DNA of 20,458 nt, from IMG/VR virus record IMGVR_UViG_3300031787_000054; one strand, 5' to 3'. The DNA comes from a virus. Lineage: Duplodnaviria; Heunggongvirae; Uroviricota; Caudoviricetes. Below the pieces are notes generated by a model, which did not search any database, was not told the DNA's origin, and saw only the letters and a program-made list of their open reading frames with translations. Below are positions 4,280 to 18,800 of this stretch, piece by piece; within the stretch, counting starts at the first letter, position 1; each line of letters opens with the position of its first letter. The translations under genes and the position numbers were made by a program.

Positions 4280-4777
4280 ATGAAAAAAATAATAATAGGA
4301 TTCTCAAAAACAGATCAGATATTTTCTAAAGCTATTATGTGTTTAGAAGATATTGATTTTTCTCATGTCTACTTTAATTTTTATTCTGAATCACTAGAAA
4401 GGAATATTATATATCATGCTAGTTTCTTTAATGGTGTTAGTTTTATAAATAAAGAAAGATTTTTGGAAGTATCAGAAATAGTTCACGAAGTTGAAATACA
4501 ATACACAGACGAAGAATATAAAAAACTAATGCAGTATATGATTGATAAAGCTGGTATAAAATATGGTAAATTACAAATTTTAGGTATGGGATTATCTAGA
4601 GTATTAAGGAAAATAGGAATTAAAATAGCTAATCCTGTAAAAGACGGTAGCTTAACTCAAGTATGTAGTGAGATTGTTGGTGAAGGATTAAAACGTAAAG
4701 GACTTATAGATAAATCTGTTGATTTTGAAGAAGAAGGTCCAGGATATATTTACAATGCGATTAAGAATAAGAGATAA
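4280..4777 (+). CDS. Circularly permuted papain-like (NlpC/P60, YiiX/YaeF-type) cysteine amidase/peptidase (165 aa)
   Basis: His precedes Cys: F-S-H29-V, I-Y-H46-A, G-I-K-Y95, V-C129-S-E. This is the diagnostic order and motif set of permuted NlpC/P60 enzymes. Confidence 0.78.
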   Translation: MKKIIIGFSKTDQIFSKAIMCLEDIDFSHVYFNFYSESLERNIIYHASFFNGVSFINKERFLEVSEIVHEVEIQYTDEEYKKLMQYMIDKAGIKYGKLQILGMGLSRVLRKIGIKIANPVKDGSLTQVCSEIVGEGLKRKGLIDKSVDFEEEGPGYIYNAIKNKR

Positions 4778-4922
4778 GAGATTATCTAAAACTAATTCAG
4801 TTAAACAGAACAAAATCAATAATGTTCGTAGTAAATATTATTTTTATAAGAAAATATCATTAGCTTTAATTATATTAAACATTATATCGTTTATTGTATT
4901 ATATAAACTAACAACTATTTAA
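4755..4922 (+). CDS. Small basic protein with one C-terminal transmembrane helix (55 aa from ATG 4755; 67 aa from 4719)
   Basis: AGGA at 4741-4744 precedes ATG 4755. A Lys/Arg-rich N-terminus is followed by hydrophobic ISLALIILNIISFIVLY. The ORF fills an otherwise non-coding gap, but AT-rich DNA readily yields such peptides. Confidence 0.35.
   Translation: MRLRIRDKRLSKTNSVKQNKINNVRSKYYFYKKISLALIILNIISFIVLYKLTTI
4909..4918 (+). promoter_or_regulatory. TAACAACTAT motif copy 1, candidate phage late promoter for the scaffold gene
   Basis: Exact 10-mer shared with 6018, 7788 and 14227; 70 nt upstream of ATG 4989. Confidence 0.6.
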
Positions 4923-4974
4923 TGAACTACCCAATAACGGGCGTTCAAACTAACCTCTATCCAATAAGGACGAG
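4923..4974 (+). promoter_or_regulatory. Tandem RNA hairpins in the scaffold 5' leader (candidate translational operator)
   Basis: Hairpin 1: TGAAC/GTTCA, TA/C internal loop, CCC/GGG, loop AATAAC (4923-4947). Hairpin 2: CTC/GAG, TA/C internal loop, TCC/GGA, loop AATAA (4955-4974). The SD AGGAG follows at 4978-4982. Confidence 0.6.
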
Positions 4975-4988
4975 TGTAGGAGAAAAAT

Positions 4989-5966
4989 ATGTCAGAAGAA
5001 ACAAGTGCTCCAGTGGAAGCATCCGCTGAAGTTCAAGAACAAGCCCCTGTAGAAGGTCAAGAACAAGTAGCTCAAGAACAGGTTCAAACAGAACAGTCTA
5101 AACAAGAAGCAAAGAAAGAAGCTGAAGTTAAGAAGAAACTTAAACAGTTAAAGATTAAATTTAACGGTAGAGAGTTTAACGAAGAACTTCCTTTCGAAAT
5201 CGACGATGACCCTAAAGCTATTGAGTACATGACCAAACAACTTCAATTCGCTAAGATGGCAACACATAGTGCACAAGAGAAAGCATTGTTAGAGAAAGAC
5301 GTAATGTCGTTCTTTCAACAATTAAAAGAGAATCCAAGAAAAGCTCTTAATAATCCAAATTTCGGTGTTGACCTAAAGAAACTAGCTACTGAGATTTTAG
5401 AAGAAGAGATTGCTAATTCAAGAAAGTCTCCAGAACAATTAAAAATTGAAGAATATGAAAGAAAGTTAAAAGAGTTTGAAGAAGAAAAGAAAGTAAAAGA
5501 AGAAGAGCTTAGACAAACCAAGTATCAGAAATTAGTAGATGATCAGTATTCTTATTATGATAACGAAATGAGCAAAGCTATCAGTAAGTTGGGATTACCT
5601 GATAGTCCTTATGTTATTAAGAAAGCAACTGACTATATTATCTATAGTATTGAAAATAACAAAGATGTCGATGTTGAAGCTATCATGAATGTTGTCAAAG
5701 ATGAATATTCTAATGACATTAAAGATATGTTACCTAGAATGAGTCCAGCTCAACTTAAAGATTTCTTTCAAACAATGAGTCCTGAGATTATAGAAGAAAT
5801 TATTGGTGAAGAAAAGATTGATCAAATCCGCAAGAAGAAGCTAGCTCAAGCTCGTCAAAAACAAGCACCAGCTAAGCCTAATATACTAGATACGGGTAAA
5901 ACAGGAAATGAACAATCTAATAAGAAAGTTGAAGTTAAGTCTTATAGAGACTTCTTTGGTGTATAA
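4989..5966 (+). CDS. Capsid scaffolding protein (325 aa)
   Basis: Acidic Glu/Gln-rich disordered N-terminus, LKIKFNGREFNEEL motif (like the KVKVDGEExEV of phage scaffolds), long charged helical/coiled-coil body and basic C-terminal tail. It has a strong AGGAG RBS and lies shortly before the major capsid gene. Confidence 0.8.
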   Translation: MSEETSAPVEASAEVQEQAPVEGQEQVAQEQVQTEQSKQEAKKEAEVKKKLKQLKIKFNGREFNEELPFEIDDDPKAIEYMTKQLQFAKMATHSAQEKALLEKDVMSFFQQLKENPRKALNNPNFGVDLKKLATEILEEEIANSRKSPEQLKIEEYERKLKEFEEEKKVKEEELRQTKYQKLVDDQYSYYDNEMSKAISKLGLPDSPYVIKKATDYIIYSIENNKDVDVEAIMNVVKDEYSNDIKDMLPRMSPAQLKDFFQTMSPEIIEEIIGEEKIDQIRKKKLAQARQKQAPAKPNILDTGKTGNEQSNKKVEVKSYRDFFGV

Positions 5967-6016
5967 GTTATTGATTTTATTAGATAAGTGAATATTTATT
6001 ATAAGTTATTGATTTT
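5962..6016. repeat. Perfect 17-bp direct repeat TATAAGTTATTGATTTT (5962-5978, 6000-6016); each copy contains an IHF-consensus site on the - strand
   Basis: The reverse complement of TAAGTTATTGATT is AATCAATAACTTA, which fits WATCAANNNNTTR. The copies start 38 bp apart. Confidence 0.7.
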
Positions 6017-6017
6017 T

Positions 6018-6027
6018 TAACAACTAT
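6018..6027 (+). promoter_or_regulatory. TAACAACTAT motif copy 2, candidate late promoter for the capsid operon
   Basis: Exact 10-mer, 130 nt upstream of ATG 6158 and directly after the second 17-bp repeat. Confidence 0.6.
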
Positions 6028-6157
6028 TTACGTATCGAAGTGTTTTCTTCTCTCGATGACTTGTTATAACCTTAAGTGGGTAACAATATCTGAACAGTAG
6101 TTTGTAAACATCTGAGTACGTTAGAATAATGGTCTTGTAAATTAAGGAGAAATTAAA

Positions 6158-6442
6158 ATGAGTTTTCAAGCAAAAAATTCTGCCATACAGGATAGACAAC
6201 TAAAAGTTCAAGAGTTAGTTATTCCACATGGTAGTTCACTGTACGAAGTAGACGGTGGAGATGTAGTAATTGATATTGGCGAAAACGTCAAATCAGTAGA
6301 GTGTTGTCATTTATCAGATGATTCAGCAGGAGAAATTGTTGTTATCCCTCAAGCGGATATCAGTATTTCTGGTTCTGAAATCACAGCAACGGTAACGATC
6401 GCTGCTAATGATAGATTAATTTTAAAATATATCGTTGAGTAA
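6158..6442 (+). CDS. Small acidic beta-rich protein (94 aa), possible capsid decoration/cement protein
   Basis: Strong AAGGAG RBS and position between scaffold and major capsid genes. The function is inferred from position only. Confidence 0.5.
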   Translation: MSFQAKNSAIQDRQLKVQELVIPHGSSLYEVDGGDVVIDIGENVKSVECCHLSDDSAGEIVVIPQADISISGSEITATVTIAANDRLILKYIVE

Positions 6443-6457
6443 TAGAGGAGAAATACA

Positions 6458-7717
6458 ATGAGTAATACAGCAAACGAATTATCGACGCTGAATGGATTTT
6501 TTAAAGAAACTTATGCAGATAAGCTTAAAGAATTGATTCCAGATGGCGTTAAATTATTAAACAAAATTAAGTTCATGGCTAAACAAAAACAGCCAGGTAA
6601 CTTCTTTCACCAACCATTAATCCTTGGTATGGAGCACGGTGTGACTTTCGCTGGTTCAGACGAAGACGCATTTAACTTAAATCCACCAGTTGCTGGTCAG
6701 ATTAAAGATGCTTCTGTTAAAGGTTCACCACTAGTAATGAGATCATTATTAGGATACGTTGCAGCTTCAAGAGCAGCACAAGGTGGAGCACAAGCTTTCG
6801 AAGACGCTACTAAATTTTTAGTTGCTAACATGCTTCGATCAATGGCTAAGAAATTAGAAATCCAAATGCTTTATGGTCAAAAATCATACGGTGCGATTTC
6901 TGCTGTTTCTGGTGCTACTTTAACAATTAAGACTTCTGAATGGGCACCTGGTATTTGGGCTGGTGCAGAAAATATGCCGATTGAAATCAGAACGTATCAA
7001 GCTGCTGGTGACACACCATCGTCTTCTTCTTCTGTAGGTGAAGCTATCGTTAAATCTGTTGATTTAAATGCTAGAACAATCACTCTTCAAGCTGCTGTTT
7101 CTGGTATCACAGTTACTGCTAACCAAGAAGATGTTATTTTCCACAAAGGTGCTTTCGGTAACGAATTCCCTGGTATCCACAAAATTATCTCTCAATCAAC
7201 TGGTTCTTTATTTGGAATCAACGTTGGAGATTACAATATGTATCGTGGTAACACATACGATGCAGGTTCTGCTAACCTTTCATTTGCTAAGTTAAACCAA
7301 GCTTTAACAAGAGCAGTTGAAAAAGGATTAGACGGAAAAGTTCTAGTTCTTTGTAACCCTCGTACATGGGCTTCAATGCTTAATAACGAGTTAACTTTAA
7401 GACAATACGATCAGTCTTATTCAAGTGCTAAATTAGAAAACGGTTCTAAAACATTGAAGTTTTTCTCACAAAATGGGGAAATGGAGATTGAACCTTCTAT
7501 TTACGTAAAAGAAGGATATTGTTATATTCTTTCTCTTGAAGATTGGACAAGAATCGGTTCAAGCGATGTTTCTTTCAAACGTCCAGGTAAAGGCGATGAG
7601 TTTTTCCGTGACCTTGAGAACTCAGCAGCTTATGAATTAAGACTATTTACTGACCAGTGTATCTTCACAAGTTCAGTTGGTAGAAACGTTTTAGTTCACG
7701 GAATTGTCAATTCATAA
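6458..7717 (+). CDS. Major capsid protein (419 aa; HK97 fold inferred)
   Basis: GAGGAG RBS; typical capsid size; N-terminal LNGFFKETYADKLKELIP; visibly biased codon usage (many TTC/AAC/GCT/CGT) consistent with high expression. It follows the scaffold gene and is followed by an intrinsic terminator. Confidence 0.87.
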   Translation: MSNTANELSTLNGFFKETYADKLKELIPDGVKLLNKIKFMAKQKQPGNFFHQPLILGMEHGVTFAGSDEDAFNLNPPVAGQIKDASVKGSPLVMRSLLGYVAASRAAQGGAQAFEDATKFLVANMLRSMAKKLEIQMLYGQKSYGAISAVSGATLTIKTSEWAPGIWAGAENMPIEIRTYQAAGDTPSSSSSVGEAIVKSVDLNARTITLQAAVSGITVTANQEDVIFHKGAFGNEFPGIHKIISQSTGSLFGINVGDYNMYRGNTYDAGSANLSFAKLNQALTRAVEKGLDGKVLVLCNPRTWASMLNNELTLRQYDQSYSSAKLENGSKTLKFFSQNGEMEIEPSIYVKEGYCYILSLEDWTRIGSSDVSFKRPGKGDEFFRDLENSAAYELRLFTDQCIFTSSVGRNVLVHGIVNS

Positions 7718-7742: not shown

Positions 7743-7774
7743 AAGCCCGATGCAATGTCGGGCTTTTTTATTTT
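7743..7774 (+). terminator. Rho-independent terminator after the major capsid gene
   Basis: AAGCCCGA-tgcaatg-TCGGGCTT stem-loop followed by TTTTATTTT. Confidence 0.9.
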
Positions 7775-15817: not shown

Positions 15818-18800
15818 TGTCAAGTACTATAACACTAAAAGCATCTGGTTTATTTACTTCAGATAACGAACTTACTTTGCCAGAAGGTTCTCTGGTTGAA
15901 GCTTCTAATGTTGTAATCCAAAATGAAGGTATTATTGAATCACGACGTGGCTATAAATTATATGGCAACGCATTACCGTCTATTTCGGATAGAGCAAAAC
16001 AATTAACCTCTTATCGTGAAAGAATTCTAAGACATTTTGGGACAACACTACAATATGATGACGGTGATGGTAATTTTACTGATTATACACTTCCTGTTGA
16101 GGAGACTCAGCAAGGATTAAGAATTAAGTTCACTGAATCAAATGGCAATTTGTACTTCACAACTAGTTCAGGAATTAAGAAACTATCAGCTAAAACATCA
16201 AATGATTTGTCTTTAATTGAGATAGAATCAGCAGGTGCAATTAAGGCTCTAGATATTAAAGCTACTACAATATATTCATTCGGTAATCAATCTGGATTCA
16301 TGACTCAAGATAGTGTTGTTGCTTACCGTGCTTTATGGGCAAAAAAAGATTTAAATGGTAATTTATTAAGAGGGACACCTAGTTCAACTACTACAGTATA
16401 TAATTCACTATTGACTTTATTAATACAAGATTATCTTAATGTTTTAGGTGCACTAGATGACGTAACAGACACTACTGAAACTAGTAGAATATCAGATGGT
16501 AATTACGTTAATACTTTGAAAGTATCTATAACAGCAGATGCTCTAACTTTAAAAAATAATTTAGTTGCTTTAGCTTCTAAAATAGACAATGACATATTAC
16601 TAGCTGATGATATTGCAGGTGCTACATTACAAATAGCTTCAGCTAACGTTTCAAGTGGAGTATGTACAGTAACATTTACTGCTGGACAAACAGAATCAAA
16701 TTACTTTACTGTTGGCGATAGTATTAGATTATCTGGTTTTACAGGCATTGAAGAAGAAAGAAGTATTGTTACTGTAGATAATACAGCAAACACTATAACT
16801 TTCTTAACAGCAGCAGCAAACGGTGCTATTGTTTTATCTTCACCAACTATTCATTCTAATACATTTAGAAATATAACAGAACCTAGTGACCCTAATATAC
16901 CAGCAACAAACAATGATTTATTAGAATTACAAGATTATTTAGATACAATTATAACAGAGTTACAAGATATTCGTGACACATCTATAACCCCGTCTAATAA
17001 ATTAAATTATATCGATAATCTAGATATAACAACGAGTGTTAATGTTAGCTTAAATGTAACAATACCTTCTGATATCGATGACCAATATTTCTTACAAGTA
17101 TATAGAACTGATGTATATGAAGCAACAGGTGTTTCAGTATTAGATGATATTATTCTTCCTTCTGAATTTCAATTAGTATACGAAGCATATCCTACTCCAG
17201 ATGAAATAACTGCTGGGGTTTTAATATTTGAAGATATAACACCTGATGAAATTAAGGAAGCAAACTTATATACAAACCCTTCAACTGGTGAAGGCGAGCT
17301 ACAAGCTAACGATGTCCCTCCTTTTGCTAAAGATATAAATAGATTTAGAAATCATGTGTTCTATGCTAATACTAGAACAAAACAAAGAATGTTCGTTAAT
17401 CTATTAGGTATAGAAGTATTGAGAGATAATATAATGAGTAATACACCAAAGATTACTATATCTAATGGTGAAGACTCTAACACTTATACTTTTGTATTAG
17501 GAGAAAGAGAAAGTGTTGATATAACTGTTACTGGAACTGGTACATTCAATACAGGAAGCATAGGTAAATATTGTGATATTCCTTCTATTAAAGGAAACGT
17601 ATATCGCTTCTGGTTTAATACTGGAACTGAAACAGCACCATCTGTTACAACAGAAATATTAAAAGAAGTTAAAATCAATAATTCTGACCCTAACAATACT
17701 ATTGCTCAGAAATTTGCCGATAAGATATCTCTATTAGTTAATGATTTCAATGTGACAGTATTGACTAACGTTGTAACTGTATTACAAACAGAAATAGGAG
17801 ATGCTGACGATTTTGACGATCAAACATCTGGGTTCTCTTTTTCAATAACACAGGGAGTTGGAGAAGACGCTATAACTAGAACTGTTGTTATATCTGATTC
17901 TTTATCTTCTGGTAGAGCATCAGATGAAACAGCTAGAAGCTTAATGAGAATTATTAATGCTAATCCTAATGAAACAATTAGAGCATATTACTTATCAGGA
18001 ACAGCTGATATTCCTGGTAAATTATTCTTTGAATCTAAAGATTTAAGTTCTGAAGCTTTTTATATAATAGCTAATAGTGAAATAACTTCATTAGCTTTTA
18101 ATCCTGATTTTACTCCACAGAATTCAATAACTACTGTTACAACTGGAACTCAAACGACAATCGAGTCTTCTGACCCACACAATTTAATACAAGGTGATTT
18201 TGTCTTAATCACTGGAACTACTGCTACTCCAGCAATTAATGGTCAATCACCAATTGATGGTTTATTTGAAGTAGTACAAGTTAATAGTTCAACTGAATTT
18301 GTTATAGATGTTAATACTTCAACTGCTTCAAACGCTGGTGTTTTCTCTAGAGCAAGTTATTCTCAATATTCTGAAAATGAAGTTAAACCTAATAGAGTAT
18401 ATTATTCTAAGTTTTCTCAACCGGATGCAGTTCCGTTAGTAAATTACTTTGATGTTGGAGCTGAAGAGAAAGAGATTCTAAGAATATTCCCTTTAAGAGA
18501 TTCATTGTTTGTGTTTAAAGAAGATGGTGTATATAGGGTTTCTGGCGAAACTGCTCCGTTTAACGTTGCACTATTCGATAATACTTCTAGATTAATAGCC
18601 TCTGATAGTTTAGGATTACTAAATAATCTTATTTTTTGTTGGACTAAACAAGGAATAGTTGCTGTATCTGAAGGTGGTATAGAGATTATTTCTAAGCCAA
18701 TTGATGATCAAATACTTAAACTTGGTTCTAGTATATATGATAATTTTTCAACAGCTACTTTTGGTGTCGGGTATGAATCTGATAATAGTTACATGGTTTG

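Follow-up and report, generated by a model that had tools for sequence, protein, structure and literature searches.

A recurrent twin-hairpin RNA element before the scaffold gene of uncultured tailed phages, a candidate two-site translational operator

The leader of a scaffold-like gene in an uncultured tailed phage (Caudoviricetes; IMG/VR record IMGVR_UViG_3300031787_000054) raises the question of why two small hairpins of the same build stand directly before its ribosome-binding site (RBS). The whole stretch of DNA analysed, 20,458 nucleotides in length, is referred to as the window, and the features discussed are collected in Table 1. An earlier note, made from the sequence alone, had described the two hairpins (HP1 and HP2) as one architecture used twice, filling the 5' untranslated region (UTR) up to the Shine-Dalgarno (SD) sequence, and had proposed them as an autoregulatory operator. 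Reading of the sequence and folding with RNAfold, the check proposed at the time, show that this description and its coordinates are exact, as HP1 and HP2 make up both the minimum free energy (MFE) and the centroid structures. The common plan consists of a lower stem, an internal loop with UA on the 5' strand and C on the 3' strand, and a YCC/GGR upper stem, and it is also seen in homologous leaders. The UTR is indeed filled, with 4 nt between the end of the TAACAACTAT motif (4918) and HP1 and 3 nt between HP2 and AGGAG. In the window, HP1, which belongs to the seed of the covariance model R2, scores 33.1 bits with that model, and HP2, which lies outside the seed, scores 14.2 bits (E=0.07). 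The pair of hairpins has a z-score of –2.6 in RNAfold, so that stability alone is modest; thermodynamics by itself is insufficient for the case, and it is the comparison with relatives that carries it far beyond chance. No U run lies 3' of HP1 or HP2, and a scan of the + strand for intrinsic terminators is empty here. A 67-aa open reading frame (ORF) with a TTG start at 4719–4922 was treated as spurious. An Rfam 15 cmscan of the whole window at E<=1 gave no match in 4900–5000 or 6030–6160, in agreement with the earlier remark that they were not recognised as a described RNA family, and full-text searches of the literature brought up neither the motif nor an operator in a scaffold leader.

Table 1. 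Positions of the leader elements and adjoining genes in the window
Feature	Position	Strand	Details
TAACAACTAT promoter-like motif	4909-4918	+	One of four exact intergenic copies: 4909, 6018, 7788, 14227
HP1	4923-4947	+	Reads TGAAC-TA-CCC-AATAAC-GGG-C-GTTCA; RNAfold -8.3 kcal/mol, z -3.0
HP1 lower stem	4923-4927/4943-4947
HP1 5' bulge	4928-4929		UA
HP1 upper stem	4930-4932/4939-4941		CCC/GGG
HP1 loop	4933-4938		AAUAAC
HP1 3' bulge	4942		C
HP1-HP2 linker	4948-4954	+	AACUAAC; family consensus about AACUWA
HP2	4955-4974	+	Reads CTC-TA-TCC-AATAA-GGA-C-GAG; -4.0 kcal/mol, z -1.4
HP2 lower stem	4955-4957/4972-4974		CUC/GAG
HP2 5' bulge	4958-4959		UA
HP2 upper stem	4960-4962/4968-4970		UCC/GGA
HP2 loop	4963-4967		AAUAA
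HP2 3' bulge	4971		C
Shine-Dalgarno sequence	4978-4982	+	AGGAG, 3 nt past HP2
Start codon of scaffold-like gene	4989-4991	+	ATG
Scaffold-like gene	4989-5966	+	325-aa acidic, mostly helical protein, taken as scaffold from gene order, AlphaFold2 model and weak BFVD matches
Second TAACAACTAT motif	6018-6027	+	Heads capsid-operon leader
HP3	6061-6086	+	Third, derived module; UUGUUA-UAA-CC-uuaagu-GG-G-UAACAA; UAA/G internal loop; 71 nt before ATG 6158
Small gene	6158-6442	+	94 aa; downstream of HP3
Major capsid gene	6458-7717	+	phrog_14242; downstream of HP3

The designation of the 325-aa protein as a scaffold is accepted as a working identity on the basis of the gene order in a related locus (L007; portal, phrog_156, then a scaffold-like gene, a small ORF and the major capsid protein, phrog_14242), the AlphaFold2 model and the weak BFVD matches of that model, among which are several annotated scaffolding proteins. 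The model, built with 28 homologues (pLDDT 73), comprises one beta hairpin and long helices between an acidic N-terminus and a basic tail, both of them disordered; it matches no fold in the PDB and contains no recognisable RNA-binding fold. Searches of Pfam (including Phage-scaffold, PF09306) and PHROG gave no match for the protein, and the protein atlas offers PF09306 as a weak lead (0.87). The family itself is large, with 3751 clusters (50% identity representatives) in a profile search at E<=1e-3. Upstream, at 4280–4777, lies a gene for a 165-aa protein with a weak crotonase/ClpP-like PHROG match (E 9e-6), which could be a prohead protease; relatives such as L007, in which the scaffold leader directly follows the portal gene, do not have this gene. 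In two other relatives a 188-aa ORF that looks homing endonuclease-like by eye follows just after the scaffold gene (L039:2324–2887 and L041:2374–2937).

Relatives were gathered by protein-guided scans of IMG/VR and JGI metagenomes, at scaffold identities from 79% down to about 31%, and one or two modules of the same build stand right before the SD in 28 of 28 homologous leaders examined. The total rose to 31 distinct homologous leaders with one or two modules (IMG/VR and metagenomes; scaffold identity 79% to about 26%). This recurrence in some 30 related uncultured phages argues for a real, uncatalogued control element. A curated set of 48 modules from 27 distinct leaders contains lower stems of 39 and upper stems of 27 different sequences, all of them complementary, and in the alignment made with covariance model R1 double changes occur at 6 of 8 pairs, with a covariation score of 0.66 against 0.17. 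The covariation of the stems claimed by the earlier note is therefore borne out. The apical loops, which the note had also called conserved, come in 31 variants of 3–8 nt, in addition to one helical extension of 27 nt; only closer relatives share the AAUAA(C) loop, and the length of the upper stem varies freely. Homologous leaders had been expected to preserve pairing and loops alike: the pairing is kept, the apical loops are not, and it is the internal loop that is conserved instead.

The conserved core of the module is this internal loop, in which the bulged A and the C-G pair above it are invariant and a Y-R pair adjoins the 3' C or a C.A/U variant of it. Across the curated modules, the second base of the 5' bulge is A (48/48) and the second upper-stem pair is C-G (48/48), and the bulge reads UA in 41 modules and CA in 7. 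Two classes of internal loop are distinguished. In class A, UA (or CA) faces C beside a Watson-Crick Y-R pair, which is U-A in 22 cases and C-G in 11 and never U/G or C/A, whereas class B, found 15 times, has the form UA-C ... A-U. Both classes occur side by side in single leaders (L005 and L062), and both could be drawn as a bulged pyrimidine and an A.C (or C.A) mismatch beside a Watson-Crick pair.

The pairing of the modules was compared with several controls. In the R1 alignment, 91.8% of the cells are paired, as compared with 66.4% after column shuffling and 33–55% with the partner strand slid. A strict descriptor gave 47 matches in 28 leaders, as compared with a mean of 0.57 (maximum 4) in 300 dinucleotide shuffles, an enrichment that is partly circular because the descriptor was built from the same leaders; hence, loci fetched afterwards were also checked. 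All three of these, with scaffolds about 26–30% identical, carry modules: L076 with 24.2 and 20.1 bits, L078 with 23.7 bits, and L074 with two class-B modules read by eye, the HP1 of which scores 11.4 bits. The element is also clearly oriented. On the reverse complement of the 28 leaders the strict descriptor finds 1 match as opposed to 47, the 48 curated modules contain 15 G.U pairs on the + strand, and all R1 matches and all but two R2 matches below E=0.1 lie on that strand. RNAalifold on a MAFFT alignment of whole leaders predicted nothing, since the variable loops and linkers misalign, and single-module alignments were used instead. Pattern and model scans of five relatives on contigs of 78–86 kb located true copies only in the scaffold leader and, in some, in the next (capsid) leader. 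A match at L002:2075 lies inside an ORF and was assigned to chance, as were the matches in the window at 15992 (–) and 2424–2450 (–); the other pattern matches on whole contigs were likewise taken as chance, their counts being equal to those of a reversed-pattern control.

The position of the modules is fixed relative to the RBS. In nearly all leaders, 8–17 nt separate the end of the last hairpin from the ATG and 0–6 nt separate it from the SD; of 21 twin leaders, 20 have an HP1–HP2 linker of 4–9 nt. By comparison, the distance from the promoter-like motif to the hairpin ranges from 0 to 27 nt, and the motif is absent from several leaders; in many, HP1 starts 4–10 nt past the motif. The element thus tracks the RBS and not the promoter. 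The motif TAACAACTAT is found in exactly four exact copies in the window, all on the + strand and all intergenic, and in most relatives both structured leaders are headed by a similar motif, with a consensus of about TTTAACAACTAT. Those with such a motif include L002–L006, L039–L043, L052, L062, L064 and L067; it is lacking in L001, L056, L061, L071 and L078, in which the end of the portal ORF, or of another ORF, directly adjoins the hairpin. No sigma-70-like site was found near TAACAACTAT in the window, and TAACAACTAT is probably a phage-specific promoter. In addition, the linker may contact the SD itself. In the MFE fold of the window, CUA at 4950–4952 can pair with UAG at 4977–4979, overlapping the first two SD bases, and of 27 leaders, about 15 have an MFE helix of 2–5 bp beneath HP2 that takes in some of the SD, whereas about 12 have none. 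The summed energy of the linkers (consensus AACUWA) with the SD-bearing tails is –28.8 kcal/mol, as compared with –11.4 +/- 5.0 kcal/mol for shuffled linkers (1/1000). The helix is a weak but consistent hint at sequestration of the SD beneath HP2.

A third, derived module, HP3, is located in the next leader, that of the capsid operon. HP3 is the sole element in the centroid fold of the leader 6028–6157 and scores 12.8 bits with R2 (E=0.22, window). Its homologues in relatives have 10 different complementary lower stems, and R2 also matches the second leader of relatives; the hairpin at this position is of class A in L002 and L005 and of class B in L006 and L067, and it is also present in L078. 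UACC often follows hairpins of the HP3 type. The major capsid protein encoded downstream is 46% identical to that of L002, in which the intervening small gene is absent. The small protein belongs to a family of 94–159 aa with the motif QLKVQE, encoded between the second leader and the capsid gene (6158–6442; L006:4033–4497; L007:4007–4483), which is present in some relatives and absent in others, gave no family match and may function in decoration or assembly. In the interval from the scaffold stop codon to the second promoter motif (5966–6016), GTTATTGATTTT is present in two copies and was IHF-like according to the first reading; GTTATTGA after the scaffold stop codon is kept in L001, and similar TTGA-containing strings follow the stop in L003, L041, L052, L053, L057, L064 and L069. 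Past the capsid gene, a strong terminator-like hairpin (AAGCCCGAT...GTCGGGCTTTTTT) at 7745–7770 lies directly before the third promoter motif.

The element has clear limits of distribution. In the distant scaffold homologues L077, L079, L080 and L082, the portal stop codon lies directly before the SD, with no leader and no module, and L081 is also without a module; the C-termini of these five proteins differ from the ...(K/R)DFF end of the module-carrying homologues. The lack of the element in leaderless distant homologues indicates that it is not intrinsic to the scaffold protein family, and it is a trait of one large clade and not of all scaffolds of this type. Single-protein scans of IMG/VR with P0150 and P0143 and a DNA search of INPHARED with the 1.7-kb region gave no match, and tblastn with the capsid protein retrieved only a Silvanigrella phage (29% identity), the corresponding region of which has no module. 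No relatives were found among cellular genome contigs, which thus gave no clue to a prophage or host.

Taken together, HP1 and HP2 constitute a real, uncatalogued element that probably sets the amount of scaffold protein. The best explanation, and one that we judge could equally well prove right or wrong, is that they form a two-site operator for a sequence- and shape-specific RNA-binding protein at the scaffold RBS. A protein-recognised site that interferes with the 30S subunit is suggested by the invariant bases within otherwise free helices, the duplication at fixed spacing, the polarity with respect to the mRNA strand and the fixed position relative to the SD; binding by a protein, repression and the nature of the binder are inferred. 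An RNA-binding protein, probably a dimer, would occupy HP1 and HP2, and the bound protein would hold HP2 and the weak linker–SD helix against the SD, resulting in less 30S binding and less translation of the scaffold. The same factor would act on the capsid mRNA as well, through the single related module, and the presence of a module in the capsid-operon leader means that control may extend beyond scaffold autoregulation. Since HP3 lies at least 70 nt from its RBS, simple occlusion cannot explain the third module.

The leading candidate for the binder would be free, unassembled scaffold, in the manner of P22-type autogenous control. In its favour, of all genes only that of the scaffold adjoins the element in every leader examined. 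Against it, the protein is strongly acidic and its model is without a known RNA-binding fold, and an extra site on the capsid mRNA is hard to explain if free scaffold is the repressor. That the scaffold itself is a specific RNA-binding dimer, reading the bulged-A loops of the two hairpins at its own RBS and of one on the capsid mRNA, is thus a doubtful proposal. If true, assembly-coupled autoregulation of a tailed-phage scaffold would for the first time have a defined RNA operator, and the scaffold would bear a new type of RNA-recognition surface. The 94-aa protein was rejected as the binder, as no gene for it is present in L002, L005, L043 and L063, in which all modules are retained and the capsid proteins are homologous to that of the window.

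The start of HP1 close behind the promoter-like motif in many leaders would also suit hairpins that stabilise the mRNA against 5'-end-dependent decay, or that mark a site at which an endoribonuclease of the host or the phage processes the polycistronic transcript, with no dedicated repressor at all. Modules are found only on the two mRNAs expected to be most abundant, and processing between the cistrons would be sensible in those leaders in which the hairpins directly adjoin the portal ORF. A plain stabiliser, however, needs neither an invariant bulged A and C-G pair nor a constant distance from the SD, the promoter motif lies at variable distances and can be missing altogether, and HP3 lies away from the 5' end of its leader. 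Processing by RNase III requires about 20 bp, or about two helical turns of double-stranded RNA, and most modules, with 5–10 bp, are too short for it. We consider stabilisation or processing unlikely.

The RNA might instead act without any protein, either by offering the 30S subunit a standby or enhancer site or by serving as a switch that senses a ligand, an ion, pH or temperature through the A.C/C.A mismatch beside the bulged pyrimidine. Both classes of internal loop can be drawn with one A.C mismatch, as such a sensor would have it, and the weak helix with the SD is placed beneath HP2. In its layout, a pair of small hairpins of like build with a short variable linker immediately before the SD, the leader resembles the guanidine-II (mini-ykkC) riboswitches, but the conserved ACGR tetraloops of that family are lacking here, the gene context is unrelated, and no riboswitch family is matched even at E<=1. 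The modules are also very small and have few conserved positions, the variable apical loops make a kissing-loop mechanism unlikely, and it is hard to see what a scaffold gene would gain from a metabolite switch. A protein-free mechanism appears improbable on this evidence.

Action at the level of transcription would have the nascent hairpins pause RNA polymerase, or would let late transcripts read past downstream terminators by antitermination in the manner of the HK022 put RNAs, which consist of two stem-loops. The location of the modules in the first 10–60 nt past a TAACAACTAT-like motif in both leaders of most relatives, and the terminator-like hairpins after the scaffold or capsid genes, would fit such a role. 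Unlike put, however, the element keeps its distance to the SD and not to the promoter, and it persists in the five leaders named above in which the motif is absent; furthermore, the put stem-loops are much larger, and a separate promoter motif, downstream of the scaffold gene, heads the capsid operon. We regard a transcriptional function as very unlikely. A DNA-level inverted-repeat site, a single-stranded DNA hairpin or coincidence is close to refuted, because although the reverse strand folds too (–18.6 kcal/mol, z –3.2), only the mRNA strand preserves the asymmetric bulges and G.U pairs, the stems covary extensively, the element is always in the 5' UTR on the coding strand, and shuffled leaders do not approach the observed number of matches.

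The mRNA-stabilising, protein-free and put-like explanations each explain less of the anatomy of the element than a two-site operator at the scaffold RBS does. What the operator explanation offers is a compact element with clear rules (an invariant bulged A, an invariant C-G pair, two interchangeable versions of the internal loop, and free stems) at the place where an operator should lie, before a gene whose protein family is seen thousands of times in metagenomes. The question can be addressed directly with a 60-nt RNA and one or two recombinant proteins, and an uncatalogued RNA motif is added for the annotation of phage genomes.

Feedback control of scaffold synthesis in phage P22 has been known since the 1980s, and we know of no RNA operator or target that has been defined for it. 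According to a preprint (bioRxiv 10.1101/2022.12.13.520362, citing Wyckoff & Casjens 1985), the P22 scaffold autoregulates post-transcriptionally, at the level of translation. The gene here is taken to be of the same kind, and the same logic is plausible, with unassembled scaffold limiting its own synthesis. The systems differ in that the present protein has no Pfam match, PF09306 included, and in that an RNA element is defined here, whereas the protein–RNA link is not.

Operators bound by CsrA/RsmA also consist of several small hairpins, one of them at the SD, much as in the scaffold and capsid leaders, and many modules contain GGA. By comparison, the GG is base-paired here and not placed in a loop, the G that belongs to the invariant C-G pair is never single-stranded, and many class-B modules do not retain GGA (GAGAU, GCGAU and CAGAU). 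A phage-encoded CsrA was excluded as the binder, as PF02599 is absent from the contigs of five relatives, 91–100% complete, in a search in which control genomes were positive.

The E. coli thrS operator contains two similar hairpin domains for the two subunits of a dimer, and the operators of thrS, T4 gene 43 and T4 gene 32 mimic the main nucleic-acid ligand of the respective protein. As in these leaders, which compete with the 30S subunit, structured elements lie directly 5' of the SD in the scaffold leader; no similarity in sequence or structure accompanies this common layout. In the coat operators of MS2 and PP7, a dimer of the capsid protein binds the hairpin, reading bases of its loop, and so couples translation to assembly. 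The present modules share with them a length of about 20–25 nt, an A (invariant here) that stays unpaired in the 5' strand, a few pairs down from the loop, stems that are free in sequence as long as they pair, and a hairpin that abuts the RBS of the controlled gene. Unlike the MS2 and PP7 operators, in which the loop is conserved, the modules vary in their loops; they carry an invariant C-G pair and, in the 3' strand, one C or U that is left unpaired, occur as two tandem copies, leave the start codon outside the hairpin and belong to a double-stranded DNA phage, in which the binder is a candidate protein. The MS2/PP7 coat operators and two-site operators such as that of thrS are the closest working analogues of an element that belongs to none of these systems.
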